From Defluviitaleaceae bacterium (GTDB lineage Bacteria > Bacillota > Clostridia > Lachnospirales > WRAX01): a stretch of 64,000 bases of DNA. Under the pieces are notes generated by a model. It had not been told where the DNA came from, did no database searches, and worked only from the letters and a program-made list of their open reading frames with translations. Location: contig WQWB01000001.1 in NCBI GenBank assembly GCA_009785555.1, forward strand, positions 1-64,000. Reading direction: 5' to 3'. Positions within the stretch are counted from its first letter, which is position 1, and each line of letters opens with the position of its first letter. The translations under genes and the position numbers were made by a program. Below are positions 1,285 to 62,567 of this stretch, one piece after another.

Positions 1285-1334
1285 TTGGCAATATTCCTAT
1301 AATTAAAGAAGAAATTTGCTGAAAAAAGTTCTTG

Positions 1335-1366
1335 ACATGTATGACAAATAGTGCTAAAATTCACAT
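1335..1366 (+). promoter_or_regulatory. sigma-A type promoter (TTGACA-17-TGcTAAAAT) upstream of regulator 1
   Basis: Consensus -35 and extended -10 read directly from the sequence. Confidence 0.4.
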
Positions 1367-2662
1367 ATGTATATATTCAAGTTTGAAGATTTCCAACAAA
1401 TCCAGTATGAGAAAATAAAACAAATCAGAACAAGGCTTGAGCTTTCACAGGAAGACGTTGCCAAAAAGCTGGGGCTTTCGCTTGCAGAATATATGGATAT
1501 AGAGTGCGGCCAACAAAGAATTACACCGGAACTGTTGTCAAACTTGAAAACCGCTTTAAACCTGCACAGAGTACCTATAACGTCGGATGAAATTGCGGAG
1601 TTTGAAGCATCCCTATGGAACTGGCGGGACATGATAAACGGCTGGCTGGTAGACTCCGCCATCGAGGCGCAGCCCTATCTTGAGCATAGCGCGTACCTCT
1701 CCTGCGATCCGGATCTATTTGATATTTATACATTGATTAGCGTCGGATTTTACCGCTTGGTAAGAAACGAGAAAGCGGCCAGCGCGGCGATGCTGACTTT
1801 AGAAAATAATTTGTTTCGGCTTTCCCGCGCAAACGAAATACGCTTCCTCGTAATGCGGGGAACGGGTGCTATCAGTAAATATGACCACAGATCAGCCTAT
1901 TCGGATTTAATAGAAGCATATAAGCTAGATGAGGGATATAATATTGCCAATTATGGGTTATACCACCATCTCGCAATCTGCTTCACAAAATTTGGCTTTG
2001 CTTATATGGCTATAAACTTTATCATGAAAGCCCGCGAAAAGGCAAAGAATGATAAAAATTACGAAACATTGCTACATCATACAAATATTCTACTCGCAAC
2101 TAATTATGCGTCCATCGGGATGTTTAATGAATCTTTGGATATTATAAATACTTGTTCAACTTTTGAAAAGGCAAATTATATACACCAACCAACGATGATA
2201 TATATCCATTACGCACAAGCACATATTTTCTATGGGATGCATAAATACGATTTAGCGTTAAAATATTGCAATAGTGCCATTGAAAGAATGGCACATAAAG
2301 ATACGAATTATCTCACCTTTTTATTTTTAAAAACTAAGATATGTTCGATGCAAGGCAATTTAGCTGAATTTTTGATTAGTTTGAACGAGGGGCTTATTTC
2401 GTCGCAAAACAATTCAATATTTAGCATTAAATTTAATGCAATAAAGCATTTTGCTACCCTCCACGAGTACCAATCATTAGACTATATAGCAGAAGTAGCA
2501 ATACCGAATATGCTTTACGAAATGCGTTATGATTTCGCCATCGAATGTTTTGACAGGCTAAGTGAACATTACACAAGAACTAAACAATATGAATTATCAA
2601 ATAAATATGCGTTACTGGCAAGGCAATATACACAAAAATTATTTATGGGGGATTTATCATGA
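1367..2662 (+). CDS. XRE-family HTH + TPR transcriptional regulator (RNPP/NprR-like), paralog 1
   Basis: N-terminal HTH (LSQEDVAKKLGLS), long AT-rich TPR-like C-terminal region, ESLWNWR motif shared with the paralog at 21841. The stop codon overlaps the start of a small peptide gene. Confidence 0.7.
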   Translation: MYIFKFEDFQQIQYEKIKQIRTRLELSQEDVAKKLGLSLAEYMDIECGQQRITPELLSNLKTALNLHRVPITSDEIAEFEASLWNWRDMINGWLVDSAIEAQPYLEHSAYLSCDPDLFDIYTLISVGFYRLVRNEKAASAAMLTLENNLFRLSRANEIRFLVMRGTGAISKYDHRSAYSDLIEAYKLDEGYNIANYGLYHHLAICFTKFGFAYMAINFIMKAREKAKNDKNYETLLHHTNILLATNYASIGMFNESLDIINTCSTFEKANYIHQPTMIYIHYAQAHIFYGMHKYDLALKYCNSAIERMAHKDTNYLTFLFLKTKICSMQGNLAEFLISLNEGLISSQNNSIFSIKFNAIKHFATLHEYQSLDYIAEVAIPNMLYEMRYDFAIECFDRLSEHYTRTKQYELSNKYALLARQYTQKLFMGDLS

Positions 2663-2820
2663 AAAAAGTAATTAAATCGTTAATGCTTGTGGTCTTTTCG
2701 TTAATTTTAATCGTGGGTATAAGCGTTCCGTTGGCAGCGGATCCTCTCGATCCACCGCTTACACCATGTCCGATATGCAACCCGGACGGCAGATCAATTA
2801 TAGAATGTGAATACTGCTAG
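2659..2820 (+). CDS. small secreted Cys-rich propeptide (53 aa), translationally coupled to regulator 1
   Basis: ATGA start/stop overlap. Reads MKKVIKSLMLVVFSLILIVGISVPLAA|DPLDPPLTPCPICNPDGRSIIECEYC: a signal peptide then a Pro/Cys-rich mature region. Its core is conserved with the peptides at 23100 and 23405. Confidence 0.6.
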   Translation: MKKVIKSLMLVVFSLILIVGISVPLAADPLDPPLTPCPICNPDGRSIIECEYC

Positions 2821-2847
2821 GCAAAATGTAAAATACTTTGTTATGCT

Positions 2848-2883
2848 AGCCAAGCCCTTAGTTTTATATGGGCTTGGCTTTTT
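2848..2883. terminator. rho-independent terminator (bidirectional)
   Basis: AGCCAAGCCC...GGGCTTGGCT stem followed by a T-run. It lies between convergent genes. Confidence 0.5.
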
Positions 2884-2905
2884 GCTGAAGATCGCCGCTC
2901 CTACT

Positions 2906-4573
2906 CTACTGAGGGATAAGCCGCGGCGCTGGCCTGCCTCTTTCTATAGGTATAAAAAACGTGGATTCGACGTTGTCTTCCCGTTCGTTCACTTGTAAAT
3001 ATCTGGCAGAAAATATTATTGGGAAAACGCCGGTTTCCGCTCCATTTGTCACCATAAAATAAAACCCTGCCTCCACAATGCCGCGCGAGCCGATGGCTGG
3101 TACAATTACCGTGTTTGAGCCCAAAAGGCTTACACTCCCCTCCGTGCGCATCACAGTAATGATTATGTCGCTTGCCGGTGCGTTGCCAAGATTTCTAATG
3201 CTGGCGTAGACTTTAAACTTCTCTTCATTGATAGAAGTAATTCGGAAATCACTTATAACTAACCGCGGAAACGCATTTGCGTTACCTGCTTCACGTACAA
3301 AGGCCGGTATATAGAGCGTCCCGCTCTGCCTCACATTATTTACATCCGTAAATATGTAGTTTATTGGGATACTAACTTCACCCGAACGTATGTTACCGTC
3401 GGCAAGCGGATTTATATATACGGTAAAATCCGCCGTCCCGCCGCTGTGCAGCGTCCTCGCGGCGGCAGGGCGCATTTCATTGCGCCACCCAAACATCATG
3501 CCTGTGGAGAATGTTAAGTCCCTTGCATTAAACCTTCCTTCATTATAGATGGAAATAGTTACTGTTTGGGTTTCGCCTGGCGTAATCGTTAGATATTGCG
3601 TCGGCGTGGTAAGCGAAAGCCTTGCCGGGGCGACCGGGGTTGGGGTTGGTATTGGCGATGGGGCTGGCGTTGCAACAGGGGGCTGTGTTGGCATTACGGC
3701 AGGCAGATTTGGCGAAATTGGCTGAACGCTATAAGTAAGATAACCCGTAACAATACCACGCCTACCCTCGCCGGTTAGGAAGTTTGCGGTTACCTCAACA
3801 TAACCAAACTGCACACCCTGCACAGGTGCGGACGAACCCGCGCTTATACGCACCGTTTGCGCTCGCGTTTCACCGGGTTCTATAATAACCGGCTCGTTTA
3901 AAATTGGGGAAAGGTTTATGCCTGGAGAAGCAGTGGAAAAGCCAATACCGGTAAGCGTTATCGGCGCGGTGCTTATATTTGTCATAAGTATTGACGAATA
4001 TGTAGGAAACGTACGGTCGACGTGTACGTGGCCGCCCTGCAGCATAAGCCCAGCGCCGTCTTCCGGCAATAACGGCGGCAATCCGGCAAAGTCCTCAATA
4101 AATACAAAAATATGATGCTCGAAAGATATGTTTATGTCGAACGGGTCACCTTCGTCCGCCGCGTACCAGCCGTTCATCGCAAAGCCGAAAACACCGGGTC
4201 TGGCGTGTGTTGCGTCTACTACAACTTCCAGGCGTACGGTATCGTCAGGGTAACCTAAATGGCCGAGATGGCGGATAGAGATAAACTGAATGTTCGGATC
4301 ATTGACACCCGGGCCGATAAAGCTAAACCCGGTGATAGAAATATTGTATAAATCAACATATGGCACGGTACGCTCAAATGTAAATTGTATTATGATATGG
4401 CGCATTCCGCGTTCTATGCGCGCCTCGTTATGCTGGATAACCCTAAGGAATGGCGTATATGTCACGCGCTCTGGCGGCGCGGCGGCGACGGGCATTGAAG
4501 TGTAAGTCGCAAATAATGCCAATAATCCAACTAAAACAATTGAAAATATTATTGCCTTCATAATCATCACCAA
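2906..4573 (-). CDS. secreted protein of unknown function with a Pro/Thr-rich linker
   Basis: N-terminal signal peptide, PTQPPVATPAPSPIPTPTPVAPA linker, 555 aa. Confidence 0.55.
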   Translation of the reverse strand: MVMIMKAIIFSIVLVGLLALFATYTSMPVAAAPPERVTYTPFLRVIQHNEARIERGMRHIIIQFTFERTVPYVDLYNISITGFSFIGPGVNDPNIQFISIRHLGHLGYPDDTVRLEVVVDATHARPGVFGFAMNGWYAADEGDPFDINISFEHHIFVFIEDFAGLPPLLPEDGAGLMLQGGHVHVDRTFPTYSSILMTNISTAPITLTGIGFSTASPGINLSPILNEPVIIEPGETRAQTVRISAGSSAPVQGVQFGYVEVTANFLTGEGRRGIVTGYLTYSVQPISPNLPAVMPTQPPVATPAPSPIPTPTPVAPARLSLTTPTQYLTITPGETQTVTISIYNEGRFNARDLTFSTGMMFGWRNEMRPAAARTLHSGGTADFTVYINPLADGNIRSGEVSIPINYIFTDVNNVRQSGTLYIPAFVREAGNANAFPRLVISDFRITSINEEKFKVYASIRNLGNAPASDIIITVMRTEGSVSLLGSNTVIVPAIGSRGIVEAGFYFMVTNGAETGVFPIIFSARYLQVNEREDNVESTFFIPIERGRPAPRLIPQ

Positions 4574-4731: not shown

Positions 4732-5106
4732 TCAATAACTGCATTTTTTGCATATCCCAGAAAAAGATATAAGGCACTCCGTAATCTCAAATTCATCTGA
4801 CGGCTGTACATTTTTCATCACAATGTCAGCCAGGCTTCCGTCCACGTCATATACGCACTCGCAGTTGCCGCAGATAAAATGGTAGTGTTCGTGGCAATTG
4901 TGGTCATAGTGGTTGGATCCGGACAGCGCGCCGACGGAGAGCAATTCACCGCCATCCGCAAGTTGCTTTAGGTTACGGTAAACGGTGGCTTTGCTGATGC
5001 TGGGATGAGTTTTGTGGACATACTCAAAAACCTGTTCCGCCGTTGCATGTATATTTAATTCGGCTACGGCGTTTAAGATTATCTGCCGTTGCAACGTGTT
5101 TCTCAT
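4732..5106 (-). CDS. Fur family transcriptional regulator (PerR-like)
   Basis: Fur-family winged helix, HxH and CxxC...CxxC metal sites. Adjacent to a rubrerythrin gene. Confidence 0.8.
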   Translation of the reverse strand: MRNTLQRQIILNAVAELNIHATAEQVFEYVHKTHPSISKATVYRNLKQLADGGELLSVGALSGSNHYDHNCHEHYHFICGNCECVYDVDGSLADIVMKNVQPSDEFEITECLISFSGICKKCSY

Positions 5107-5107
5107 G

Positions 5108-5650
5108 TTAGAAATACCGCTTTAACAAACCATCAAACGCCATGCCATGGCGCGCTTCATCCTTACACATTTCGTGCACAGTGTCGTGTATGGCGTCCAG
5201 GTTAAGTTGCTTTGCCCTTCTTGCGATATCCAATTTACCCTGTGTTGCGCCGTGTTCAGCCAGTACGCGCATTTCAAGGTTTTTCTTTGTGGAGGCATCA
5301 AGCACCTCACCCAAAAGTTCGGCGAACTTAGCAGCGTGCTCCGCCTCCTCAAAAGCGATACGCTTATACGCCTCAGCAACTTCTGGATAACCTTCACGGT
5401 CCGCTTGGCGGCTCATGGCAAGATACATGCCGACTTCGGTGCATTCGCCTAAGAAGTGCTGTCTAAGGCCTTCAACAATCTCCGGGTCAACGTCTTTTGC
5501 AACGCCGATTCTGTGTTCGTCGGCGTAGGCCAGCTTACCTTCGGCCTGCTCTACAAACTTTTCCGCCGGAACGTGGCATTGCGGGCATTTTTCCGGTGCC
5601 GCGTTACCCTCGTGTGCATAGCCGCAAATTGTACAGATAAATTTTTTCAT
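5108..5650 (-). CDS. reverse rubrerythrin (N-terminal rubredoxin-like CxxC..CxxC followed by a ferritin-like diiron domain)
   Basis: CTICGY...CPQC at the N-terminus, EExH diiron motifs downstream. Confidence 0.85.
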
Positions 5651-15388: not shown

Positions 15389-16339
15389 CTACCTAGGGGT
15401 TACCCGCTCCACGCTATATCCGTCTTGTATCAGTAGATTGACGATACCCATCTCGCCTATCAGGTTTGCCGCATTAATAACAAAAAATACGTTCCGCTTA
15501 TCGGCGAGAACGGCACGCGCGGCGGCGGCCATAATACGGTTGGGACCGAAGATCAGCGTCTCACTCGCTTCACGAAACAATTCTTCGTCAGCCCCGTCGG
15601 GCGCGTACATTATCGTATATAATATCTCCTCATAATCACCTCGGATAATCATCTCAAAAAGATAGATCATGCTGTTGACATATGCCTCCGTATCCAACCG
15701 TTCCTCAAGAAGCAGCAACTGCAGCTCGGCAGATATACTATACGTACTCCTAAATAAGTCAAGGATCGTTTGCGTACCGATAATCGTCATATACGCTTCC
15801 AACGCTAAGTTAAGGAAATGAGTTTCGACCATATACTCTGCGTAAAACCCGGCTAAGTAAGCGTTAATATTGCCAAATACCGAAAACCACATAGGGAAGG
15901 TGAACGCCGGCGAAGTAACGAAGTCCGGGCCAAAAATACCCCGCATTGCACTCATGTAAAACGGATCAAGTACGCGGTCGCGCACTATGTCCAAAATATC
16001 ATGACCCAAAGTGTCTGCTATTGTGGTATCGCTAATGAGCAGGTCGTTCAAGCGTTGCCGATCAATCCAACGCAGTTCCTCAAGCGGATTTGTTTCCATC
16101 AAAAGTACGTCAGAAGCGTGGAATGCGTCCATAACGATGTCCGGCAAAGGGTAGATGTCTGCTCGTCCAAGCACTGGCGAGCCGAAGAGGTATAGTATGT
16201 AGCCGTCTGGAGATGTAACCCGCCATATTAATGGGGTTACAGCGTGGTTGGCCGGTGTTCCATAATTCTGCACGGCGGTGACACAGGCTGTTAAAGACAG
16301 AAGCAAAACAGCGACAAGAATGATTGCGGTTTTACGCAT
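15389..16339 (-). CDS. lipoprotein, TraB/GumN-like (putative)
   Basis: Lipobox LSLTAC. The YILYLFGSPVLG region resembles the TraB/GumN family, but the canonical His is absent. Confidence 0.35.
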   Translation of the reverse strand: MRKTAIILVAVLLLSLTACVTAVQNYGTPANHAVTPLIWRVTSPDGYILYLFGSPVLGRADIYPLPDIVMDAFHASDVLLMETNPLEELRWIDRQRLNDLLISDTTIADTLGHDILDIVRDRVLDPFYMSAMRGIFGPDFVTSPAFTFPMWFSVFGNINAYLAGFYAEYMVETHFLNLALEAYMTIIGTQTILDLFRSTYSISAELQLLLLEERLDTEAYVNSMIYLFEMIIRGDYEEILYTIMYAPDGADEELFREASETLIFGPNRIMAAAARAVLADKRNVFFVINAANLIGEMGIVNLLIQDGYSVERVTPR

Positions 16340-21623: not shown

Positions 21624-21712
21624 GTCATTGTGAGGAAAGCTTTACTCCGAAGCAATCCAGTAAATGCCGATAAATCATCGTTTCTGGATTGCTTCTCTTC
21701 ACTCGCAATTAC
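21624..21712. repeat. GTCATTGYGAG / GAAGCAATCCAG palindromic element
   Basis: Unit + spacer + reverse-complement unit (GAAGCAATCCAG...CTGGATTGCTTC, GTCATTGTGAG...CTCGCAATTAC). Confidence 0.5.
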
Positions 21713-21784: not shown

Positions 21785-21813
21785 TTGACACTTGTAATTA
21801 TGTGTAGTATAAT
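21785..21813 (+). promoter_or_regulatory. consensus sigma-A promoter TTGACA-17-TATAAT
   Basis: Read directly from the sequence. Confidence 0.5.
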
Positions 21814-21840: not shown

Positions 21841-23103
21841 ATGACAAAAGTTATGACAATTTCCTCAAAATTGAACTCAATACGAAAAAAGCTGGGCATT
21901 TCGGAATCGACAGTTGCCTTAAACTTGGGATACCATATCAACAAGTTTATAGAGCTTGAAAACGGCGAGGCTACCATTTCCAACGAGCTTTTATCTAAGT
22001 GGAAGTTGGCTCTCGGCATCCCGGAAGTGCCAATAACAGACGTCGAGGTTCAGGCCTTTGAAGAATCGTTGTGGAACTGGCGCACGCTGATAAACTCATG
22101 GCTTGTTGACCTGGCTCGCGAAGGGCTGCACAAACTCAAACGCTGCGCCGAGCTGTCCTGCGAGCCGCATCTACAGCACGTCTACACGCTGATAAGCATA
22201 GGTTATTTCAGCATCGTTGACGATAATGAAGCAGCGGATAGGGCATTACAAATCCTAGCGGTTGATTATCTTAACCTTTCAACTATCAACAAAATACGCT
22301 TCCACACCATCCGCGGCAACCGTTATGCAAATAAGCATAACTACGCTAAGGCGTTTGAAGAACTGCATGAGGCATACATATTAAATGACGGCTCCAGCAT
22401 AGCTGGGCTTGGGTTATATTATGCGTTGGCGCAATGTTTAACTGTTTTTGGCTTTTCGTATAAAGCTATAGATCTATTGACAAAAACACGTGAAATGTAT
22501 AAAGCCGCGGGGGATGAAGTTACTTTAATATATTCAAACATTCCGCTTGCCTTAAACTATTCCCGTATCGGTGAGTTTGATAAGGCTATGCAGTTACTTA
22601 ACGAATCTTTAGACCAACAACCGGTTACGTCTTTATACCCCTCCATTTATTATGGTTATGCTAATCTATATAAAGCGATGGGTGATTATGATAAAGCGTT
22701 GGAGTTTTGTGAAAAAACTATAGAAAGCATTGATCTTAATAGCGAAATATATTTAAACGCTTTATATTTAAAAGCAGAAATTTTTACACTCCAAAATAAT
22801 ACAAAACCTCTATTAGAATGTATAGAAGAAGGACTAACCGCTTCCATCAATAATTACAGATCCTTGATAAGTTTCAACACAATAAAGCATATGAGAAATT
22901 TAAATAATGAAGAATCATTAAGTTACATAATAAATACATCAATTCCTTTTTTCGAGGAAGAGAAATATTATCGCACAGTTATAGAATATAATTTAAAACT
23001 ATGTGAGTATTTTGAAAAATGCGGTAACCATTCAATGGCTTTAAACCATCTAAAACAATCAATGAATTATGAACAAAAACTTTCAAAGGGTGATATTTCG
23101 TGA
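21841..23103 (+). CDS. XRE-family HTH + TPR transcriptional regulator (RNPP/NprR-like), paralog 2
   Basis: Homologous to 1367..2662 (HTH, ESLWNWRTLINSWLVD, TPR-like AT-rich C-terminal half). Its stop overlaps a peptide gene. Confidence 0.7.
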   Translation: MTKVMTISSKLNSIRKKLGISESTVALNLGYHINKFIELENGEATISNELLSKWKLALGIPEVPITDVEVQAFEESLWNWRTLINSWLVDLAREGLHKLKRCAELSCEPHLQHVYTLISIGYFSIVDDNEAADRALQILAVDYLNLSTINKIRFHTIRGNRYANKHNYAKAFEELHEAYILNDGSSIAGLGLYYALAQCLTVFGFSYKAIDLLTKTREMYKAAGDEVTLIYSNIPLALNYSRIGEFDKAMQLLNESLDQQPVTSLYPSIYYGYANLYKAMGDYDKALEFCEKTIESIDLNSEIYLNALYLKAEIFTLQNNTKPLLECIEEGLTASINNYRSLISFNTIKHMRNLNNEESLSYIINTSIPFFEEEKYYRTVIEYNLKLCEYFEKCGNHSMALNHLKQSMNYEQKLSKGDIS

Positions 23104-23279
23104 AAAAGGTTATTAAAATTAGTATTCCAATCTTAACAGTATTACTTTTATTTATAGCAATGACAAAGCCTATGTTTTCAGATCCAGGCCCTATCCTCCC
23201 ACCACTACCACCGTGCCCGATTTACGGTATAGACGGCAGAAGCATAGACCCATGCGAGCCGTGCGTCGAAGAAAGATAG
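23100..23279 (+). CDS. small secreted Cys-rich propeptide (59 aa, GTG start overlapping the regulator stop)
   Basis: VKKVIKISIPILTVLLLFIAMTKPMFS|DPGPILPPLPPCPIYGIDGRSIDPCEPCVEER. Confidence 0.5.
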   Translation: MKKVIKISIPILTVLLLFIAMTKPMFSDPGPILPPLPPCPIYGIDGRSIDPCEPCVEER

Positions 23280-23404: not shown

Positions 23405-23587
23405 ATGAAAAAATTTATGAGATATATTTCTATACTTATAGTGACTATTGTTTTGTCTATTGGCTTTTCTATATCCTTAACCGCCGGAGGAGGAGATCCC
23501 GTTCTCCCACCACTACCGCCCTGCCCGATTTACGGCATAGACGGCAGAAGCATAGACCCATGCGGGCCATATACGGACGAAAAATAA
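23405..23587 (+). CDS. small secreted Cys-rich propeptide (60 aa), second copy
   Basis: MKKFMRYISILIVTIVLSIGFSISLTAGGG|DPVLPPLPPCPIYGIDGRSIDPCGPYTDEK. RBS-like AAGGGGA upstream. Confidence 0.55.
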   Translation: MKKFMRYISILIVTIVLSIGFSISLTAGGGDPVLPPLPPCPIYGIDGRSIDPCGPYTDEK

Positions 23588-23659
23588 CCGTAGGGGCGAA
23601 CTGTGTTCGCTTAAACCTATCGGTTGCACAATGCTTGACGAACACAGTTCGTCCCTACG
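23588..23659. repeat. CCGTAGGGGCG hairpin repeat (full palindrome)
   Basis: GTAGGGGCGAACTGTGTTCG...CGAACACAGTTCGTCCCTAC, 20-bp arms. Confidence 0.5.
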
Positions 23660-23758
23660 TTGGTAAGCGACTTACTCTTATCACTTACACTATGTCCAAT
23701 CTGCGACCCGTACGGTAAAAGCATAGACCCATGCGAACCGTATACGGACGAAAAATAA
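23660..23758 (+). pseudogene. remnant of a third peptide gene copy (no signal peptide): ...LCPICDPYGKSIDPCEPYTDEK
   Basis: The 3' end and the downstream CCGTAGGGGCG repeat duplicate those of the 23405 gene. Only a TTG start is available. Confidence 0.3.
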
Positions 23759-23765
23759 CCGTAAA

Positions 23766-23790
23766 CACGTAGGGGCGAACTGTGTTCGCC
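23766..23790. repeat. CCGTAGGGGCG repeat (half unit)
   Basis: ACGTAGGGGCGAACTGTGTTCGCC. Confidence 0.4.
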
Positions 23791-24025: not shown

Positions 24026-24050
24026 TATTACAACAACATCATCACTCACC

Positions 24051-37480: not shown

Positions 37481-38023
37481 ATGCCTAACTTAAAAGGAAC
37501 AAAGACGGAAAAGAACTTGATGGAAGCCTTCGCTGGTGAATCCATGGCCCGCGGCAAGTACACTTATTTCGCCGGCCGCGCGAAAAAAGCCGGTTTTGAG
37601 CAGATAGCCGCGATATTTTTGGAAACCGCGTTTAACGAACAGGAACACGCCAAGCTGTGGTTCAAACTCCTCCACGGCGGTGAAGTGCCCGAGCTTGAAG
37701 AATGCCTAAAAATAGCCGCCGAGGGTGAACGCGAGGAATGGACGGAAATGTACAAACGTATGGCTGAGGAAGCCCGTGATGAAGGCTTCACCGACATAGC
37801 CCGACAGTTTGAAATGGTAGGCCAAATCGAAAAGGAGCATGAGGAACGATACCTCAGGCTGCTCAAAAGCGTCAACGAGTCCACAACATTTAAAAAAGAG
37901 GAAAACCACACATGGCTGTGCCGCAACTGCGGCTTTACGCACACCGCCTCCGCCGCGCCAGTCTTATGCCCCGTGTGCAAGCACCCACAGGCGTATTTTG
38001 AGATGAAATCGGAAAACTATTAG
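37481..38023 (+). CDS. rbr: rubrerythrin (ferritin-like diiron domain + C-terminal rubredoxin)
   Basis: EQEH diiron motifs, C-terminal CRNCGF...CPVCKHP. Confidence 0.9.
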   Translation: MPNLKGTKTEKNLMEAFAGESMARGKYTYFAGRAKKAGFEQIAAIFLETAFNEQEHAKLWFKLLHGGEVPELEECLKIAAEGEREEWTEMYKRMAEEARDEGFTDIARQFEMVGQIEKEHEERYLRLLKSVNESTTFKKEENHTWLCRNCGFTHTASAAPVLCPVCKHPQAYFEMKSENY

Positions 38024-48147: not shown

Positions 48148-48175
48148 TCAATGTTCACATTAATTGGAGAATAAA

Positions 48176-49579
48176 ATGACAAAAGCAAAAATAACAGCTT
48201 CCGAATTGTGGGAGCAAACCATCAATGAACTGGCGGAAACAGGTGAATTATCAGACATCGGATACAACGCTTGGTTATCAAACGTCACGCCGGTTAGTTT
48301 TGATGGAAATAATTTAGATTTACTTGCGGCTGATGAATATGTTAAGGAAACAATTGAAAACAGGTATTTAAAAAAAATAGATAAAATCACGGCCATTAAA
48401 CTTGGCCGAAAGATTATCATTAATATTGACCATCGCCGTACGGGTGCCGCAGATGTTACGGCAGATTCCGAATACGATGACGAAAACACCTCCACCCCAC
48501 CGGCAATTTCTCCACAACAGGCGCGTACAAAAAATTCTCATATAAACAACACTCTTATACGCAGATATACATTCGATACATTTGTAAAAGGCAAGCATAA
48601 TGAGCTGGCCTTCGGCGCATGCAGAGCTGTGGCAGAAAACCCGGGCGTTACTTCATACAACCCGTTATTTCTGTACGGCGGCGTCGGCCTCGGCAAAACG
48701 CATCTTATGCACGCCATCGGCAATTACGTTACCGAATTTGACAAAAACCTCAACGTCATCTACGTTACATCCGAAGATTTCGTAAACGACTTCGTAGCCG
48801 CCATCCGTGCCGACAGGCCTCAAAAATTCCGCGAAAAATACCGTGACGTAGACGTTCTAATGGTTGACGACGTGCAGTTCCTCGTCAACAAAATACTCTC
48901 ACAGGAAGAGTTTTTCAACACCTTTAACGCGCTTTTCCATACAAACAAGCAAATCGTTCTCTCAAGCGACAAGCCGCCATCCCACCTTACCACGCTTGAA
49001 GAACGCCTTACCTCACGATTCGGTTCCGGCTTGGTCGTAGATATCTCATTGCCGGATTACGAAACGCGCCTCGCGATACTTGAAAAAAAGGCGGAAAAAG
49101 AAAAAATACATATACCAAACGAAATATTGCGTCACCTTGCCGCAAATATAGATTCAAACATTCGTGTACTTGAAGGCGCGTACAACCAAATAATAGCCCG
49201 CGCAAAACTCACCAATACGGAGGTTAATATAAACCTAGCATATGAGGCTTTAAAGGATATATCAAACACGGCAGCAAAGACGGAGCTTAACATACCGCAT
49301 ATCCTTAAATTCATAGCGGATAAATACGTCTGTACGCCGGACGAATTGCGGTCTAAGAAACGCACGGCCAATCTATCCCATGCGCGGCAGGTTGCCATGT
49401 TTATTACCCGTAAAATACTTAATTGCCAACTTACATCTATCGGCAAGGAGCTTGGAGACAGAGACCACTCCACAGTTCTCCATGGTATAAACCGGATTAC
49501 AGAATTGCTTGAAACCGATAAAAAACTGCAGGCTGAGCTGGAGGTTTTGGAAGAGGAAATTAGGCATGCCGCAAAATAA
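48176..49579 (+). CDS. dnaA: chromosomal replication initiator DnaA
   Basis: AAA+ Walker A GGVGLGKTHL, C-terminal DnaA box-binding HTH. ATG at 48176 with a GGAGA RBS; the track ORF opens at TTG 48164. Confidence 0.95.
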   Translation: MTKAKITASELWEQTINELAETGELSDIGYNAWLSNVTPVSFDGNNLDLLAADEYVKETIENRYLKKIDKITAIKLGRKIIINIDHRRTGAADVTADSEYDDENTSTPPAISPQQARTKNSHINNTLIRRYTFDTFVKGKHNELAFGACRAVAENPGVTSYNPLFLYGGVGLGKTHLMHAIGNYVTEFDKNLNVIYVTSEDFVNDFVAAIRADRPQKFREKYRDVDVLMVDDVQFLVNKILSQEEFFNTFNALFHTNKQIVLSSDKPPSHLTTLEERLTSRFGSGLVVDISLPDYETRLAILEKKAEKEKIHIPNEILRHLAANIDSNIRVLEGAYNQIIARAKLTNTEVNINLAYEALKDISNTAAKTELNIPHILKFIADKYVCTPDELRSKKRTANLSHARQVAMFITRKILNCQLTSIGKELGDRDHSTVLHGINRITELLETDKKLQAELEVLEEEIRHAAK

Positions 49580-49682
49580 TATTTTATGAAAGTTGTTTTA
49601 TATATTTATAGTAAGAGTTGTACTAGGGTTTGTGGATATGTTTAAAATTTAATATATTATTGTAGTAATGGGATTATATGGT

Positions 49683-49803
49683 GTGGACAATTATAGGATA
49701 ACTTGTGAAAAGTAAGAAACTTATCCACATTATAGATGAAATATTGAAAAGGCTTATAATTATCAACATTTGATTAATGTTATCCACAATGTTTTGTTGA
49801 TAA
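49683..49803. other. oriC: oriC part 2: DnaA-box cluster between dnaA and dnaN, with an AT-rich candidate unwinding region at ~49580-49680
   Basis: TTGTCCACA (rc) at 49683, TTATCCACA at 49721 and 49780, TTATCAACA at 49761 and 49795 (rc). Confidence 0.6.
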
Positions 49804-49826
49804 GTATAAGGAGAAGGAGAATATAT

Positions 49827-50969
49827 ATGAAGCTTAGTTGTTCAAAGGATTTATTGGTGCATGGTATAGGTATCGTCGGTAAGGCTGTTACGGGGCGCAG
49901 TACGCAGCCGATACTGGAATGTATATTACTTGAAACAAACAGTGATGGTTTGGTTTTAACGGGTAACGATTTAGAACTTGGTATAGAAAGCCGCACGATC
50001 GCTGCCGACGTTGATGAAGGTGGCAAGGTTGCGCTTAATGCGCGTATATTTTCCGATATCGTAAGGAAGATGCCAGGAGACAAAGTTGAGATAGAATGCA
50101 TGGGTAATTTCGTTACGATGTTGCGTGGGGGAGGTGCGGAGTTCCGTATACTTGGAAGCGATGGCGATGAATTCCCCGGCTTACCGGAAATGGATGGCGG
50201 TGACGTAAACGACAGGTTTGAGATAACTGCCGCCGAAATATCTGGCATGATAAAGCAGGTTCTTTTTTCTGTCTCTACAGACGAATCCAAACCAGCTCTA
50301 ACTGGCGTACTGTTTGAGTCGAAGGAAGGTAAGTTGAGGCTTGTATCGCTTGACACGCTTAGGGTTAGCGTAAGGGAGGCCGATATCGACAATAAGGAAC
50401 TAAGTGTTTACGCAATTATCCCTGGAAAGGTGCTTGGAGAGATTACCAAAGTGCTTGGCACAAGCGATAAAAACATAGTAACGATTCAATTTATGAAGAA
50501 TCTAGTATTGTTTGAGACGGATGAAGCGCGTATCATATCTAGGCTTATTGACGGTAAATTTATAGACTATGAACGGCTTTTTGCGACGGAGGCTACTACA
50601 TACCTAACCCTTCATTCCAAGTTTTTGGAAGATGGGCTTGAACGCGCATCCCTCATATCGCGAGAAGCGCGGAAAAACCCGGTCAGGCTTACTGCTGAGG
50701 AAAGAGACGGCGCGTTCGCCCTGACCGTTGAATCAAAAGCTGAGACGGGTACGTTTATAGAAGAAATCGGCCAAGAGGCTGCATTGTCGCTTGATGGGCA
50801 AGGTATAAAGATTAGCTTTAACCCTAAGTTTCTACTTGATGTACTAAAGGTTGTGAATGACGGTTCAATCTGCCTAAAATTTACGACGCCGATTAGCCCG
50901 TGTATTATTACCGGTACGGAAGATGAAAGCTATAGGTACGTGATTATGCCGCTTAGGGAGTATATGTAG
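49827..50969 (+). CDS. dnaN: DNA polymerase III beta sliding clamp
   Basis: Three-domain beta clamp, AAGGAGAAGGAGA RBS, 380 aa from ATG 49827. Confidence 0.9.
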   Translation: MKLSCSKDLLVHGIGIVGKAVTGRSTQPILECILLETNSDGLVLTGNDLELGIESRTIAADVDEGGKVALNARIFSDIVRKMPGDKVEIECMGNFVTMLRGGGAEFRILGSDGDEFPGLPEMDGGDVNDRFEITAAEISGMIKQVLFSVSTDESKPALTGVLFESKEGKLRLVSLDTLRVSVREADIDNKELSVYAIIPGKVLGEITKVLGTSDKNIVTIQFMKNLVLFETDEARIISRLIDGKFIDYERLFATEATTYLTLHSKFLEDGLERASLISREARKNPVRLTAEERDGAFALTVESKAETGTFIEEIGQEAALSLDGQGIKISFNPKFLLDVLKVVNDGSICLKFTTPISPCIITGTEDESYRYVIMPLREYM

Positions 50970-55703: not shown

Positions 55704-56609
55704 TTACTCCATATTTATACTTAGTGAAAGCTGGTGTATGCCATTTGATAAACGTTTTTTTGCGATTTCTGCGTAATTTTCGTCTATTTCAATTCCAATG
55801 TAATGCCTATTTAAATTTTTTGCGGCTAAACATGTTGTACCTGAACCGGCAAAAGGATCGATAATAATCGCACCCTCTTGTGTAACAAGTGATACAAGAC
55901 GCTCCATTAATTTTAGCGGTTTCTGTGTTTCATGTAATCCATGGTCTTCTTTATCGTAGCAAACAGAAAATATGTTTGTGTTGGCTATGCTTTCATTCCA
56001 AGCACCAACATTATGTTCAATAACATTGTCTGCAAGCGTTCCACCTGTTTTATAAGGTTTTTGAAACCATAAAATAGGTTCAAATAGTGGACGTAAATTT
56101 GCAACACGCCAACCTTCCCAATCCTCAGCTCTTGTGTTATCGCCACGTCTTTTATATATTTCTGAAATACGTTGAGCGCGGTGCGGGGCTGTTGTTTTTT
56201 CCCAAGCTAACATATCTTTAAATGTAAAACCTGCATCTTCAAGAGCTACTATACATCTATGAGCAAAACGACGACCAGCAAAAATAAAACATGAAGCACC
56301 TGGTTTTAATATTCTAAGCCAGTCAAATGCCCATGATGAACACCATTCTTGGTATTCAAAGGGTATCTTTTTATCCGCATCGCTCCATCCGTTTAAAGGT
56401 TTGCCACGGCGTTTAAATAATGTTCCGCCGTTAATTTGTGCCGTTGATGCACCGCCTAAGGCAGAGTTAGTGTTATTATGTAATATATCCCATTCATTAT
56501 AAGATATTCCATAAGGAATGTCAGAAATAATGGCATGAGCATATTCGTTGGGCAATTTTTTCATTAATTCTATAGAATCGCCGCAAATAATGTTATCTAA
56601 ATTAATCAC
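55704..56609 (-). CDS. beta-class DNA methyltransferase (N6-adenine or N4-cytosine), partner of the adjacent endonuclease
   Basis: Motif IV SDIPYG precedes motif I IIDPFAGSGTT. GTG start at 56609 with an AGGAGG RBS. Low GC. Confidence 0.8.
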   Translation of the reverse strand: MINLDNIICGDSIELMKKLPNEYAHAIISDIPYGISYNEWDILHNNTNSALGGASTAQINGGTLFKRRGKPLNGWSDADKKIPFEYQEWCSSWAFDWLRILKPGASCFIFAGRRFAHRCIVALEDAGFTFKDMLAWEKTTAPHRAQRISEIYKRRGDNTRAEDWEGWRVANLRPLFEPILWFQKPYKTGGTLADNVIEHNVGAWNESIANTNIFSVCYDKEDHGLHETQKPLKLMERLVSLVTQEGAIIIDPFAGSGTTCLAAKNLNRHYIGIEIDENYAEIAKKRLSNGIHQLSLSINME

Positions 56610-57474
56610 GGCAAATCCTCCTACTAACATAAGAATTAATTTGCCGGATTTTTTCATCTATTTTTTTATTTTTTATTAATTCGTCAATTGCTTGATCACG
56701 TGAATATGATAAAATTATTTTACGTTCATTTTCCCAATATGTCTTTTCCTTTTCGCTTCTGCTTGTTATATTTTGTGAATATGAAGTTAGTGCTTTTTCA
56801 AATTCATCGTATGTATATCCGATAAGAAAAGAAAAACATCGATCAAATATAGGAATAAAACATATTTTTCTTTGTGCAGCTGTTATTATGTGGGAATGAG
56901 TTTCACTAAAATTCCATATACGAGATAAATTAATTTTTCCATTTTCGGTTATATTATTTTTTAGTAAAAAAATCAAATGCTCCCAACTCAACAAACAAAC
57001 ATTATTATCAATAGACTGTGCAAAAATTTGACTTTGTTTAATTGGATAATGAAAATAAGGAGCGCAAAGAACTGCATAATCACTATCTTTACGCCATCCG
57101 GATAAAGCTGTAACTTTGAAATCTTTTTGGTTTTTAGCGGTTCTGCTCATACGAAATGATTTGGCATCTGCTACAAGAGTGTATCCATGTATATTTGATT
57201 TTGCAATTACGTCAGCCGAATCAGCACGTTTTGAAACAATAGTTGAGTTTAAGCCTAATTCACGAAAAGCGCGTGATAATATCGCATCAAATGATTTTGC
57301 AAATAATTTTTCTTCTGTGGAATCATGGGCAATGCTTTCCGGTATTGTGCCGATTTGTGAGATTATATCCAAAAAATTATTTGTATCTGATATAAAAAGG
57401 TTCAGCCTTTCAAAAGCACTATTAAAACCGTATTTTGCGTATTCATTAATTAAATGCACAAATTCATTAAACAT
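56602..57474 (-). CDS. type II restriction endonuclease, HindIII-like PD-(D/E)xK
   Basis: D..(15)..DAK catalytic spacing (SADVIAK...TLVADAKSF), low GC, 8-nt overlap with the methyltransferase gene. Confidence 0.55.
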   Translation of the reverse strand: MFNEFVHLINEYAKYGFNSAFERLNLFISDTNNFLDIISQIGTIPESIAHDSTEEKLFAKSFDAILSRAFRELGLNSTIVSKRADSADVIAKSNIHGYTLVADAKSFRMSRTAKNQKDFKVTALSGWRKDSDYAVLCAPYFHYPIKQSQIFAQSIDNNVCLLSWEHLIFLLKNNITENGKINLSRIWNFSETHSHIITAAQRKICFIPIFDRCFSFLIGYTYDEFEKALTSYSQNITSRSEKEKTYWENERKIILSYSRDQAIDELIKNKKIDEKIRQINSYVSRRICRD

Positions 57475-58935: not shown

Positions 58936-59406
58936 TTATATAATTTGGCTTACGTATGATTCATATAAAGAGGCAAAGATGGCGGCGGCGGACACAAACA
59001 ACACACCCACAATAATAAGATTCCATGCGGGTTTCTTACCGTTTTCTATTTTTTTCTGTTTATATTCATAGAATGATGTCGGGGCGTTTTGTGGGTTTAA
59101 AAATGGGATAAAACGCATTTTATAGAAAAACGTCTTCATAGAAAAGGCAAGCATGTCAAACGCGCCAAAAAACGTGGTTATCGTTAGTAGGCCGAAACAT
59201 AACGACAATCCGCCAACAATAAACAACCCATCGGACATAATGCGGGCTACAACGTTAAAGTCGTCCTCCCTAAATATCCCGCGGGAATTTATAATAAGAA
59301 GCACAAAAACTGCCGCAATAACGGCAGTAATCGTGCTTCCAATTATTATCTTCTTTAAAGGTGATCTTTCCTCACGCAGAAGTTTACGTTGTTTGTTCAA
59401 TCGCAT
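58936..59406 (-). CDS. DUF3899-like membrane protein
   Basis: 3 TM helices, 156 aa. Confidence 0.45.
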   Translation of the reverse strand: MRLNKQRKLLREERSPLKKIIIGSTITAVIAAVFVLLIINSRGIFREDDFNVVARIMSDGLFIVGGLSLCFGLLTITTFFGAFDMLAFSMKTFFYKMRFIPFLNPQNAPTSFYEYKQKKIENGKKPAWNLIIVGVLFVSAAAIFASLYESYVSQII

Positions 59407-60449
59407 TAGGATATAAGCGGGGTGTGCTGTTTCATGGAGATGCGGTACTGCTCAAACTCCTGAGTATTGCACATTACGAAATGCCCGGGAGTAATTTCGC
59501 GGAGTGTGGGCATTTCCTCTCTATAATCGTGTACAAGGGCGGGCACGTAGTGTATGCGCTTGCGGCTCTTCTCCGTAATCGGGTTTGGTTGCGGGATGGC
59601 GGAAAGTAAGGCGCGCGTGTACGGATGTAAGGGGTTTTCAAATAAGTCCTTCGCGGAGGCAAGCTCTACAATTTTACCGAAATACATAACTGCGATCCTG
59701 TCGCTGAAGTATTTGACTACGCTTAGGTCGTGAGCGATGAAGAGGATGGTTAGCCCCATGCGTTCCCGCAGGTCATTAAGCAGGTTTATAACCTGTGCCT
59801 GGATGGATACGTCAAGCGCGGATACGGGTTCATCGGCGATTATCATGTCTGGCTCAAGCAGTACTGCGCGTGCGATGCCGATACGTTGGCGCTGCCCGCC
59901 GGAGAACTCGTGCGGGTAGCGCTCGGCATGCTCCGGCACAAGGCCGACCATGTCCAAGGCGGCGCGCACTTTCTCCTCAACGAATTTCTTATCCTTAATG
60001 CCTCGTATGGTTAGCCCTTCCGCAATGATCTCACGCACCGTCATCCTTGGGTTAAGGCTTGCGATCGGGTCTTGGAAAATCATCTGCATCTTGCTCATTA
60101 TACCGCCATGTACAGCATCCTCTACCTCGGATTTTGCCTGTACAAGGTTGCGGGCAAGCTCAGCCGCAAGCGCGGTATTGCCGGCTTTGCGTGCGGCGGC
60201 GATCTCCCTCTTCTTTTCCCTTACGCCGACACCGATACGCTGGCCGTTAAAGATAACGTCGCCGCCTGTTATGTCGTATAGACGGATGATGGCGCGCCCG
60301 GTTGTGGTTTTGCCGCAACCGGATTCACCCACAAGGCCTAATACTTCGCCTTTGGCAACGTCAAAGCTGATATCGTCAACGGCTTTAAGGTCCATACCTT
60401 TAAGCCTAAAATAATGCTTTAAATTCTTTACTTGTAATAATGGTTCCAT
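59406..60449 (-). CDS. oppF: oligopeptide/dipeptide ABC transporter ATP-binding protein (OppF-like)
   Basis: Walker A GESGCGKTT, signature FSGGQRQR, Walker B IIADEP, C-terminal oligopeptide domain. Confidence 0.85.
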   Translation of the reverse strand: MEPLLQVKNLKHYFRLKGMDLKAVDDISFDVAKGEVLGLVGESGCGKTTTGRAIIRLYDITGGDVIFNGQRIGVGVREKKREIAAARKAGNTALAAELARNLVQAKSEVEDAVHGGIMSKMQMIFQDPIASLNPRMTVREIIAEGLTIRGIKDKKFVEEKVRAALDMVGLVPEHAERYPHEFSGGQRQRIGIARAVLLEPDMIIADEPVSALDVSIQAQVINLLNDLRERMGLTILFIAHDLSVVKYFSDRIAVMYFGKIVELASAKDLFENPLHPYTRALLSAIPQPNPITEKSRKRIHYVPALVHDYREEMPTLREITPGHFVMCNTQEFEQYRISMKQHTPLIS

Positions 60450-60467
60450 AATTTTTCTCCTCCCCCT

Positions 60468-62564
60468 CTATTTACCAGCCGCGTCAGCGTTGTTTATCCT
60501 GTTCATTCTCTCTATACGTTCAGTGAGAATGCGGGGACGCTCCACTTTTGGCGCGTTGGGATGAAGAAGCCAGGTTGCCGCTTTATGTGTTTCAGAAAGT
60601 TCAAAAAGAGGCGGCTCTTCCTCAAAGTCTATTTCTAATGCGTATTTGTTACGGATAGCAAAGGCGTCGCCCTTGGGCGGATAAATCATGTTTGGAGGCG
60701 CACCGGGTATGGATTCCAATTTTTCTTCCGTTTCAAGATCCGGCATGGATGAAAGCAGAGCCCATGTATACGGATGCTGCGGGTTGAAGAATACTTCTTC
60801 CGCCGTACCAGTCTCGACGATTTTGCCTGCATACATAACAGCAAGCCTATCCGCAACATTAGCTACGACGCCAAGGTCATGTGTGATGAAGATTACGCTT
60901 AGGCCGCGCTTTTCCTTTAAGTTGTTGATAAGATCGAGGATCTGAGCTTGGATGGTAACGTCCAAGGCCGTTGTCGGCTCATCGCATATCAGGAGATCCG
61001 GGCTTGCGGCAAGGGCGATGGCGATGACGACGCGCTGGCGCATACCGCCTGAGAACTGGAAGGGATATTGGGTGTATCTGGCACGTGCTTCCGGTATGCC
61101 AACCTCTTCCATAAGGCTTATGGCGCGGGATTTAGCAAGGCGTTTCGTAACTTTGTAGACGGTACGGCTTGCGTCTTCCCTAATCCGCTTTACTGTTTTG
61201 CGGGCAAGGTCCGCGTAATCTAGATCCGCGGTATTTTCCAGTTCGTACTGATAACTTTCACACAGGCGTGTAAGCACGGTAACGACGTTTTCACGGTATA
61301 GATCCACGTCGGCGCGTTCTGCAAACTCTTTTTTCTTGCGGCCGCGAACGTTTTTGCCTTGGATTTTCTTGGCTAAAATCAGCTTATCCAATTCGTTTTT
61401 TATACCTGTTTTAAATGTGTAAGAAATACTGTCTTTTTGAAGGTCGAGTTTGTTGATACCAGCCTCAACAGCTTGGATAAGGGTTTTGATGGTATTTTGA
61501 AGCTCGTTTAAGTCGGCGTTCGGGTTTTCAAACTGCGGAATTTTCTGCATGATGAGATCAAGCGCAATTTGCTTCTTTTCAATTGATTGTGTTTGCGATA
61601 GCTCTAGGGCAGACGCGGTTTCCTGTATAAAGCCATTCATGAAGCCGTCATCAAAGATTTTTTGTATTTCATCATTGATAGTTCCGATGTCCGAACCGGT
61701 CGGTATTGCTATGCCGGCAAAGGAGCAATAACCCATGGCGAAGAATCTTGGTTCCGGCAACTCCAAAGCGGAGGCAAGGATGGCGCGTACGGAGTTAAGT
61801 GCGGAGCGCACCGCGTCCTTACCGACTTCATCGCCCGATGCAAGGTATTGTGCCGATGCCGCCTTTAATTCCGAAACTGCAGAATCGAAGGCGGAGTTAT
61901 CCTGTATGAGGTACTCGTGCTTACAACGGCCAAGCAGGCCGATAACGTGATTTATCTCACGCACAATGGCTTTCGGCTCACCACGGATAATATCAATAAG
62001 TATGCCGTCGATAGTACTTATTTCGGCGATAACCGTGTTTTTAGCGGCCTGGTACGGTTTCTCAAGGTTTGCGCCGCGTACGGCAAATTGCTCCAGCTCT
62101 TTAACATGGGAGCTTTTATTAGCGGCAAGGGCAGAAATGCGGTTCTTTAGGTTCCTCTTCGCATTCCGCCTACTGATTTTATTGTTGAGGAACATGGCTT
62201 CTGTGAGTTGGCGGCCAATACGCACGATTGGGTTAAGGGACGAGAACGGGTCCTGGAAAATCATGGAGACCTTATTGCCCCTAAGCAATTGGAAGTCCTC
62301 TTCGGAGATTTTTGCAAGATCCATCCCATCGAAGAAAATTTCACCTGATTCGTAGATTGCGTTGCCGGACGAGATGCCCATAATTGCCTTTGCCGTAACG
62401 GATTTACCCGAACCGGATTCGCCAACGATGGCAAGCGTCTCACCACGATCAAGCGTAAAGTCTATGTTCCTAACGGCTTTAACAGTACCGTTGTTTGTGC
62501 GGAAGAGAACACGCAAGTTCTTAACTTCCAAAATACGTTCATTGTTGTTTTTATCGATTGCCAT
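60468..62564 (-). CDS. oppD: oligopeptide ABC transporter ATP-binding protein (OppD-like) with a ~330-aa insertion between the Q-loop and the signature motif
   Basis: Walker A GESGSGKS and Q-loop IFQDP, then ~330 aa of helical sequence, then FSGGMRQR, LICDEP and the H-loop. 698 aa against the ~340 typical. Confidence 0.8.
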   Translation of the reverse strand: MAIDKNNNERILEVKNLRVLFRTNNGTVKAVRNIDFTLDRGETLAIVGESGSGKSVTAKAIMGISSGNAIYESGEIFFDGMDLAKISEEDFQLLRGNKVSMIFQDPFSSLNPIVRIGRQLTEAMFLNNKISRRNAKRNLKNRISALAANKSSHVKELEQFAVRGANLEKPYQAAKNTVIAEISTIDGILIDIIRGEPKAIVREINHVIGLLGRCKHEYLIQDNSAFDSAVSELKAASAQYLASGDEVGKDAVRSALNSVRAILASALELPEPRFFAMGYCSFAGIAIPTGSDIGTINDEIQKIFDDGFMNGFIQETASALELSQTQSIEKKQIALDLIMQKIPQFENPNADLNELQNTIKTLIQAVEAGINKLDLQKDSISYTFKTGIKNELDKLILAKKIQGKNVRGRKKKEFAERADVDLYRENVVTVLTRLCESYQYELENTADLDYADLARKTVKRIREDASRTVYKVTKRLAKSRAISLMEEVGIPEARARYTQYPFQFSGGMRQRVVIAIALAASPDLLICDEPTTALDVTIQAQILDLINNLKEKRGLSVIFITHDLGVVANVADRLAVMYAGKIVETGTAEEVFFNPQHPYTWALLSSMPDLETEEKLESIPGAPPNMIYPPKGDAFAIRNKYALEIDFEEEPPLFELSETHKAATWLLHPNAPKVERPRILTERIERMNRINNADAAGK

Positions 62565-62567
62565 AAA

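Follow-up and report, generated by a model that had tools for sequence, protein, structure and literature searches.

Known RRNPP systems and the reg1-pep1 locus

In Firmicutes, processes from sporulation, competence and virulence to solvent production and phage lysogeny are under the control of RRNPP systems, which to our knowledge have been studied almost wholly in Bacilli and a few clostridia. Here we describe the reg1-pep1 locus, whose closest solved homologue, both by sequence and by fold, is NprR of the NprR/NprX system from the Bacillus cereus group. It lies near the start of a 64,000-nucleotide stretch of DNA (positions 1 to 64,000 of contig WQWB01000001.1, assembly GCA_009785555.1; hereafter the window), which is represented in an ENA metagenome assembly and in the NCBI metagenome-assembled genome (MAG) 'Defluviitaleaceae bacterium'. 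The gene reg1 (1367..2662, + strand) encodes a 431-aa receptor or regulator with an XRE-type helix-turn-helix (HTH) and tetratricopeptide repeats (TPR), while pep1 (2659..2820, +) encodes a 53-aa propeptide with four Cys, and the two are probably an RRNPP-type, NprR-like peptide quorum-sensing pair. In the NCBI MAG, the proteins of this and related cassettes are called only HTH regulator, TPR protein or hypothetical protein; reg1 is MCL2406288.1, labelled only 'helix-turn-helix transcriptional regulator', and pep1 is MCL2406289.1, 'hypothetical protein'.

Among other described systems, the Rap proteins of Bacillus, phages and the plasmid pLS20 act on response regulators or ComA, and the SHP peptides of streptococcal Rgg/SHP systems are exported by PptAB and not by Sec. 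In NprR, the residues contacting NprX are R126, Y193, N194, E241, S274, N275, N306 and D309; the Asn at N275 contacts the peptide backbone and is described as conserved in all RNPP proteins, and Arg126 of the KRD motif binds the conserved Asp of NprX and its C-terminal carboxylate (PMC3763537). The clostridial Qsp precursors are 39-50 aa long and have a conserved Leu, a Pro and a terminal or near-terminal Trp, the active QspB being AEPTWGW (PMC7376267). A published RRNPP(A) signature uses five criteria, with a receptor of 250-500 aa and a propeptide search range of 10-100 aa, and the validated systems span receptors of 285-473 aa, propeptides of 21-50 aa and gene spacings of -50 to +191 bp (PMC10075063).

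Four of the five elements of this signature are found at our locus, and the fifth, a Sec/signal peptidase I signal sequence, is likely from inspection. The receptors are 431 aa (reg1) and 420 aa (its paralogue reg2) long, and the TPR/RNPP fold is seen through matches to NprR and in an AlphaFold2 (AF2) model, despite sub-threshold Pfam matches to TPR. Each peptide gene is the direct neighbour of its receptor gene, with 4-nt overlaps at reg1 (ATGA) and reg2 (GTGA). The window propeptides are 53, 59 and 60 aa long, and all members of the family have 53-61 aa, which is slightly above the validated range and inside the search range. The initial annotation of this DNA had held that the peptide does not fit RNPP systems, a view that we do not share, as NprX likewise comprises a pheromone and an 11-aa tail. 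The length of the peptide is no obstacle, because RNPP systems keep the processed pheromone short and not its precursor.

Homology and predicted fold of the regulator

An HTH_3 domain is found at residues 17-66 of reg1 (Pfam, E = 5e-7). Among all PDB sequences, NprR is the best match to reg1 (phmmer; 4gpk, E = 2.9e-11, residues 114-417), and a profile of ten family sequences matches NprR over the whole TPR domain (E = 2.4e-28 and 1.6e-27), followed by pLS20 Rap and RapI. The AF2 model of reg1 (pLDDT 90.5, pTM 0.85) has 22 helices, and Foldseek against the PDB places apo NprR and the NprR-NprX complex (5dbk/4gpk) at the top (E = 2.5e-9, target-normalised TM 0.72-0.82), with Rap proteins next and PlcR far lower. 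A tblastn search of 72,556 plasmid records gave a single match, to nprR in an nprR-nprX-M4 peptidase locus. No match was obtained in phage records by tblastn, and hence there is no sign that the regulator derives from an arbitrium-like system or a phage Rap. Because phmmer, the family profile, the AF2 model, Foldseek and tblastn all point to NprR, we conclude from sequence and model that reg1 is a true NprR homologue with the NprR/Rap type of RNPP fold, as had been predicted for this regulator. A word-indexed homologue search with reg1 was null, since the 431-aa protein has been placed in a 90% cluster represented by an unrelated 46-aa DUF4160 fragment; this is a database artefact and does not mean that reg1 is absent from the collection.

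A promoter-like site precedes reg1 at 1332..1360 (+), with TTGACA, a 17-nt spacer, TAAAAT and a TG extension (11 of 12 matches; a consensus match only). Because the -10 box ends only 6 nt before the ATG of reg1, without a Shine-Dalgarno sequence between them, the reg1 mRNA may be leaderless. The N-terminal extension implied by this start is kept in one relative (P0004).

The coupled propeptide gene

The reg1 stop and the pep1 start share the ATGA at 2659-2662, a 4-nt overlap, and the Shine-Dalgarno sequence of pep1 (GGGGGA, 2647..2652, +) lies inside the last codons of reg1 (..MGDLS and stop). The same arrangement is seen at reg2, at a third regulator (reg3) and in relatives, and GDL[ST] is the C-terminus of most family regulators, since its codons hold both the Shine-Dalgarno sequence and the overlapping start.

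The propeptide of pep1 divides into MKKVIKSLMLVVFSLILIVGISVPLAA, a signal sequence of codons 1-27 (2659-2739) with two Lys, about 18 hydrophobic residues and ..PLAA, and the exported part of 26 aa, DPLDPPLTPCPICNPDGRSIIECEYC (2740-2817); the boundary, with Ala at -1, was set by inspection. Judged in the same way, the 11 propeptides of the family (11/11) have an n-region with two or three Lys/Arg, 15-20 hydrophobic residues and Ala (Ser in pep2a) at -1, followed by D, G or N. The invariant Cys was also considered as a lipoprotein site. This was rejected, as the residue sits in P-C-P, 10-15 residues past the hydrophobic region, and there is no L-x-x-C lipobox.

Downstream of pep1 lies a terminator-like hairpin (2848..2884, +) with a 10-bp G+C-rich stem, AGCCAAGCCC / GGGCTTGGCT (2848-2857 / 2870-2879), and a short run of 4-5 T reaching 2883; the folding energy of 2820-2895 is -24.6 kcal/mol (z = -2.9). 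A consensus terminator scan did not call this hairpin, plausibly because its loop exceeds the limit of 3-8 nt in the scan. The 431-aa HTH and TPR regulator, the ATGA overlap and the 53-aa open reading frame (ORF) with four Cys reported in the initial annotation are thus all present in the sequence, with the signal sequence seen by inspection, and the proposed discrete two-gene unit stands, the coupled genes being closed by the hairpin and T-run.

Paralogous cassettes and duplication of peptide genes

The core PCPI...DGRSI..C of pep1 recurs at 23100..23279, at 23405..23587 and in a 5'-truncated remnant at 23684..23758, so that the core said earlier to be common to the peptides at 23.1-23.76 kb belongs to two intact genes and one remnant. 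With a degenerate DNA pattern for the core, exactly three intact genes were matched in the window and none in 100 shuffles.

The second cassette begins with a promoter-like site at 21785..21813 (+; TTGACA, 17-nt spacer, TATAAT, read from the sequence directly) and reg2 (21841..23103, +), a paralogous HTH and TPR regulator of 420 aa (416 aa in NCBI, MCL2406311.1, from an ATG at 21853) that is 39% identical to reg1 (E = 8e-91). In contrast to the possibly leaderless reg1, it has a 5' untranslated region of about 20-30 nt. The 59-aa propeptide gene pep2a (23100..23279, +) starts with a GTG over the reg2 stop; it is unannotated in all sources, and its exact sequence is not in the protein collection. 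A second propeptide copy of 60 aa, pep2b (23405..23587, +; P0151, FWC95_00130), is preceded by a duplicated reg2 3' end including the Shine-Dalgarno sequence. The remnant of a third copy (23684..23758, +) reads ..LTLCPICDPYGKSIDPCEPYTDEK up to the stop and lacks a start codon, the signal sequence and the 5' half, with a palindromic repeat element directly upstream. On another contig of the same MAG (L002), reg3 is 49% identical to reg2 and is followed by three tandem peptide genes, pep3a-c. The organism hence carries at least three cassettes, with one, two (plus one remnant) and three peptide genes.

The stretches upstream of the downstream peptide copies align to the 3' end of the regulator, which implies that the duplication unit was this 3' end together with the peptide gene, and the extra copies appear to have arisen by tandem duplication of that unit. 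Over the 30 exported codons of pep3a, pep3b and pep3c, pN/pS is 0.04-0.16. For the first 24 codons, in the signal sequence, it is about 0.7-0.9 in two of the three pairs, the third pair having no synonymous change. Moreover, the 20-codon core of pep2a and pep2b differs by three synonymous and zero nonsynonymous changes. These values indicate purifying selection on the exported part and drift in the signal sequences. Because the coupled small ORF recurs at nine loci beside homologous regulators and bears the marks of purifying selection, it is a real gene, beyond chance.

The amplification to two or three peptide copies per cassette and the Cys-rich tails would also suit an effector in place of a ligand, that is, a Sec-exported antimicrobial or other extracellular product under an orphan NprR-like regulator. 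RRNPP regulators do control adjacent peptide-product operons, as Rgg/SHP does with RaS-RiPPs, ribosomally synthesized and post-translationally modified peptides (RiPPs) of radical S-adenosylmethionine (SAM) enzymes. We nevertheless find an effector very unlikely, and the bacteriocin-like role once proposed for pep1 is not borne out. The Sec-dependent bacteriocins known to us are cationic and amphipathic, but the exported peptides here are Pro-rich and all anionic (net -1 to -6), with acidic tails. The flanking ORFs scanned at the two window cassettes (at least 110 aa; several without a Pfam match) yielded no gene for immunity, ABC export or maturation, and none was called on L002; nor did a small membrane-protein or ABC gene turn up next to the cassettes among the ORFs scanned. 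The translational coupling is, moreover, kept at every pair locus down to about 27% receptor identity, which is the pattern of a receptor and its ligand.

Relatives and rarity of the family

When 5.8 billion protein clusters were searched with a profile built from the three window peptides, five proteins came up, all from the same MAG and three of them encoded by the L002 tandem genes. The DNA pattern of the peptide core gave only two matches in 185,579 species-representative genomes, and both were rejected as chance, being out-of-frame and in GC-rich MAGs of Thermoanaerobaculia and Steroidobacteraceae. Regulator patterns scanned over genome contigs gave no confirmed match, and the scan of metagenome contigs a single locus. 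A search with a 13-sequence regulator profile found 2 proteins among 8,000 candidates scored, and an exhaustive search with a regulator hidden Markov model returned 884 clusters at E <= 1e-3, only about nine of them with at least 30% identity; roughly 80 regulators have E < 1e-30. The Pro-rich, Cys-bearing propeptides, with no relative outside one MAG and its neighbours in the protein and genome collections, are a family not previously described, and the regulators are a rare NprR-related lineage in uncultured Defluviitaleaceae-like bacteria.

A coupled small ORF with a signal sequence, overlapping the regulator stop with its start, was found at reg1, reg2, reg3 and five more distant relatives. 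With a slash at the likely signal-peptidase site, the coupled ORFs read ..AHA/NDPDPPIPDPPPCPFRSLPETETE for P0003 (L005; regulator identity 40%), ..VLA/DAHPPAVPIPFLDITVDYCYIYQYYTLNNGFECADESLEKLR for P0005 (L008; 33%), ..VIA/DDAPPEIIPISAPIIICICDDTCSCDI for P0006 (L010; 31-33%), ..AYA/DSTPTIPIAF for P0008 (L009; 30%) and ..VFA/DEDPPIRHTPFSIVVPPPCDDGSDIDM.. for P0010 (L012; 27% to reg1). By coordinates, the genes also overlap by 4 nt on L002 (the first peptide gene with the reg3 stop), L005, L008 and L009, and by 8 nt on L010 and 7 nt on L012. No coupled ORF was found directly after the regulators P0011 and P0012. The homologues and conserved synteny that had been expected of the small ORF are therefore seen in cassettes 2 and 3 and in five relatives, each time coupled to a regulator. 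One of these, P0003 (L005 789..2011), is 356 aa long and has no HTH, but its coupled propeptide is kept and a promoter-like site lies right upstream; by domain content it seems to be a Rap-like, HTH-less member of the same lineage.

Radical SAM genes lie divergent from the regulator-peptide pair at L008 821..1876 (-) and L009 839..2192 (-). The L009 enzyme carries a SPASM domain, with a 36-aa ORF (MLIVNQEQLKVSLEAAPVDAAGSNVCGASKSLESVM) ahead of its gene and a membrane protein encoded downstream; this gene set looks like a RaS-RiPP operon under quorum-sensing control. By analogy, the arrangement on L008 and L009 suggests what such regulators may control elsewhere.

These enzymes, together with the Cys-rich sequences, bring up another explanation, in which the coupled peptide would be the precursor of a RiPP. 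An enzyme encoded at an unlinked site would introduce a modification of the thioether, sactionine or a similar type, either before the peptide leaves the cell or afterwards. This seems highly improbable to us. No radical SAM, LanB/C/M, YcaO or similar gene is present among the scanned ORFs of at least 110 aa in the 64-kb window, a Sec signal sequence is atypical for RiPPs matured in the cytoplasm, and the Cys positions are not conserved. Moreover, the L009 radical SAM gene has its own leader-type ORF, the one of 36 aa, and hence does not need the coupled peptide as its substrate.

Comparison with described systems

Like NprR (422 aa), reg1 has an N-terminal XRE-type HTH and an all-helical TPR domain, and its propeptide gene follows immediately downstream on the same strand. 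The motif GLYY(N)IA..T aligns between the two, NprR N306 being reg1 N314, and the NprX pheromone, just past the signal sequence and followed by a tail, has the location we propose for the signal of this family. However, the identity to NprR is only 17-22%, and N275, Y193/N194, E241 and D309 are replaced in family regulators, although an Asn equivalent to N275 is kept in P0006 and P0008. At the position of R126 in the KRD motif, reg1 has V-R133-N, reg2 V-D-D and other relatives N, K or G, in a loop segment where the alignment is uncertain. The NprX motif x-K-P-D-x-x-G is not found in pep1-3, which by eye share no similarity with it, only a loose N-P-D-G/K-P-D-I resemblance. There is no adjacent nprA (M4 metalloprotease) gene downstream of pep1 or cassette 2, and nprR and nprX are 2 nt apart, whereas reg1 and pep1 overlap by 4 nt. 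Finally, the family propeptides of 53-61 aa are Pro-rich, Cys-bearing and present in one to three tandem copies, against 43 aa for NprX.

With Qsr/Qsp (QssA-H) of Clostridium acetobutylicum and QssR/QssP of C. saccharoperbutylacetonicum, the locus shares an HTH and TPR regulator followed by a small, usually unannotated ORF. The Qsr/Qsp genomes likewise hold several paralogous systems, in which a few residues including Pro are conserved across the paralogous signal regions (PMC7376267). In contrast, Trp is present in none of the 11 family propeptides (0/11), and reports on Qsp mention neither Cys nor acidic tails nor tandem copies of the peptide gene; we set the Qsr systems apart by their description. 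The reg1-pep1 pair thus falls outside the NprR/NprX and Qsr/Qsp subfamilies in the strict sense, because its peptide type, the lack of the target gene and the replaced Asn all depart from what defines them.

Rap/Phr systems give the second-best fold and profile matches to reg1, their phr genes overlap or directly follow rap, and the HTH-less P0003 resembles Rap in domain content. However, reg1 and reg2 have an intact HTH_3 and Rap proteins are without an HTH. A likeness to Rgg/SHP beside RaS-RiPP operons is confined to L008 and L009, with their radical SAM genes divergent from the pair, and on L009 extends to the SPASM domain and the 36-aa precursor-like ORF. The receptor subfamily differs, and no radical SAM gene was found beside the window cassettes.

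Cysteines and the putative signal

The exported parts contain four Cys in pep1, three in pep2a, two in pep2b and in each of pep3a-c, one in L005, two in L008, four in L010, at least one in L012 and none in L009. The Cys in P-C-P is the sole Cys invariant among the seven close copies, and the one after DGRSIxx is replaced by Pro in cassette 3. Further away, the P-C-P column holds Ile in L008 and L010 (one MAFFT alignment, with L009 gapped and L012 not aligned), and by eye P-I-A-F of L009 and T-P-F of L012 fall near this position. The two disulfides or metal site earlier suggested for pep1 find no backing here: a fixed fold of either kind is not supported, because the counts range from 0 to 4, the positions vary and Ile occupies the P-C-P column in L008 and L010. 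Cys nevertheless makes up 7.7% of the exported residues (one peptide per cassette) vs 1.2% in 23 window proteins (P = 3e-9), and Pro 22% vs 3.8%. Given this family-wide enrichment, the thiols may have some role.

One such role would be a long thiol-dependent signal, in which most or all of the 26-33-aa export is active, the Cys act through an intra- or intermolecular disulfide, metal binding or a redox switch, and the peptide is recognised either in a TPR pocket that has been remodelled or on the cell surface. The Cys enrichment would fit this, as would the purifying selection over the whole exported region within cassettes, the loss of the backbone-binding Asn from the window regulators and the acidic tails throughout. 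Yet outside P-C-P no Cys position is kept between cassettes, the L009 export is a Cys-free decapeptide, and RNPP pockets of known structure hold 5-10 residues. Moreover, Defluviitaleaceae are anaerobes, which speaks against routine extracellular disulfide formation. On balance we consider such a signal decidedly unlikely.

The element common to all members is D-x-x-P-P ... P-[C/I]-[P/A/S]-[F/I] at the start of the exported part. In L009, this Pro-rich module is the entire exported part, and in NprX (B. thuringiensis record) the signal sequence leads straight into SSKPDIVG, with the 11-aa tail behind it. Since the module is the only element common to all relatives, constitutes the whole L009 export and has the position of SKPDIVG in NprX, we favour it as the pheromone (about DPPLTPCPI in pep1 and LPPLPPCPI in pep2 and pep3), an assignment by homology and analogy that we make with about even confidence. 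The segment N-P-[DE]-G-R-S-[IV], which resembles the P-D core of NprX, would be the second candidate.

Proposed mechanism and its implications

Under the quorum-sensing reading of reg1-pep1, a single transcript from the promoter-like site at 1332-1360 would carry both genes, with their translation coupled via ATGA. The pep1 product would leave the cell through Sec, signal peptidase I cleaving it ahead of 'DP', and its 26-aa exported part may then be trimmed extracellularly to a shorter peptide. This peptide would be re-imported by an oligopeptide permease and bind the concave face of the reg1 TPR superhelix, which would alter how the N-terminal HTH engages the DNA of a putative regulon.

The homology and fold of the receptor, the coupling of the genes, the recurrence of the pair and the selection on the exported part are observed here and carry this reading. 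Several points weigh against it. The steps from export and processing to re-import, binding and regulon are deduced from sequence and models. The TPR_1 and TPR_12 matches in reg1 (residues 279-334) are weak and below the Pfam gathering scores, and in sequence alignment the N275 position is not Asn in the window regulators, different aligners placing A283 or Q284 of reg1 and a G or Y of reg2 there. Within a cassette, the constraint spans the whole exported region of about 30 aa and not just 5-10 residues. Furthermore, LPPLPPCPI is identical in pep2 and pep3, so that the two systems would cross-talk if it is the signal. Nothing convincing as a shared operator or palindrome was found upstream of seven regulators, and this upstream comparison identified no target gene or operator for the window cassettes. 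The acidic, Cys-enriched tails and the loss of the canonical RNPP Asn are two features that an ordinary RRNPP pair leaves unexplained. A lineage in which a bipartite long signal (Pro-rich module plus acidic thiol tail) is read by a TPR pocket without the canonical Asn, in dependence on the thiol state, would take up both, but we think it unlikely.

The locus documents a small and rare NprR lineage, the amplification of peptide genes together with the regulator 3' end, and a Pro-rich module that recurs along with an acidic tail enriched in Cys. If the signal includes the tail or its thiols, the accepted picture of RRNPP ligands as short linear peptides without modification would be widened, and through a thiol-dependent bipartite signal quorum sensing would be coupled to the exposure of the organism to oxygen or metals in its habitat. 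If it does not, the family would be one more of the many candidate RRNPP subfamilies already predicted by genome mining.

Genomic setting

Both window cassettes have a G+C content of 36-39% vs about 47% for the window, and their neighbours are core chromosomal genes (radA, uvrC, hprK, murB, whiA, gap, a SipL/LysM sporulation gene, dnaA and dnaN). The genes dnaA and dnaN at 48164..50969 (+) place the chromosomal replication-origin region inside the window. Convergent with cassette 1 is a gene (2906..4573, -) for a possible surface protein of 555 aa; it is hydrophobic near the N-terminus, has a linker rich in Pro and Thr, and carries the domains NPCBM_assoc and CARDB. Oxidoreductase genes lie downstream of cassette 2.

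Two further features recall peptide signalling. A TraB/PrgY/GumN-family gene (15389..16339, -; Pfam E = 1.9e-28) lies between both cassettes; in the enterococcal pCF10 system, PrgY restricts the induction of cells by their own pheromone, and any link to the window cassettes would be putative. Parts of an Opp/Dpp-type ABC importer, two oligo_HPY-domain ATPases and a BPD_transp_1 permease, are encoded at 59406..63998 (-). They are of the importer kind that RRNPP signalling needs, but are generic and prove nothing about pep1.

A pair of a HindIII-type restriction endonuclease and an N6/N4 DNA methylase (55704..57474, -) coincides with the lowest-GC kilobase of the window (33.5%) and was probably acquired horizontally. 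Within 4732..5650 (-), a 124-aa ORF (4732..5106), Fur/PerR-like by eye, is accompanied by a 180-aa ORF that is rubrerythrin-like by eye, and a rubrerythrin confirmed by Pfam is encoded at 37481..38023 (+); rubrerythrin and Fur/PerR-type oxidative-stress genes are typical of anaerobes. Two palindromic families resembling repetitive extragenic palindromes or miniature inverted-repeat transposable elements, GTAGGGGCG.. with seven copies and CATTGCGAG..GCAATCCAG with four, occur at 21626-21692, 23326, 23590-24030, 29783, 31059 and 39717-39805, and are densest in the intergenic region at 23.3-24.05 kb.

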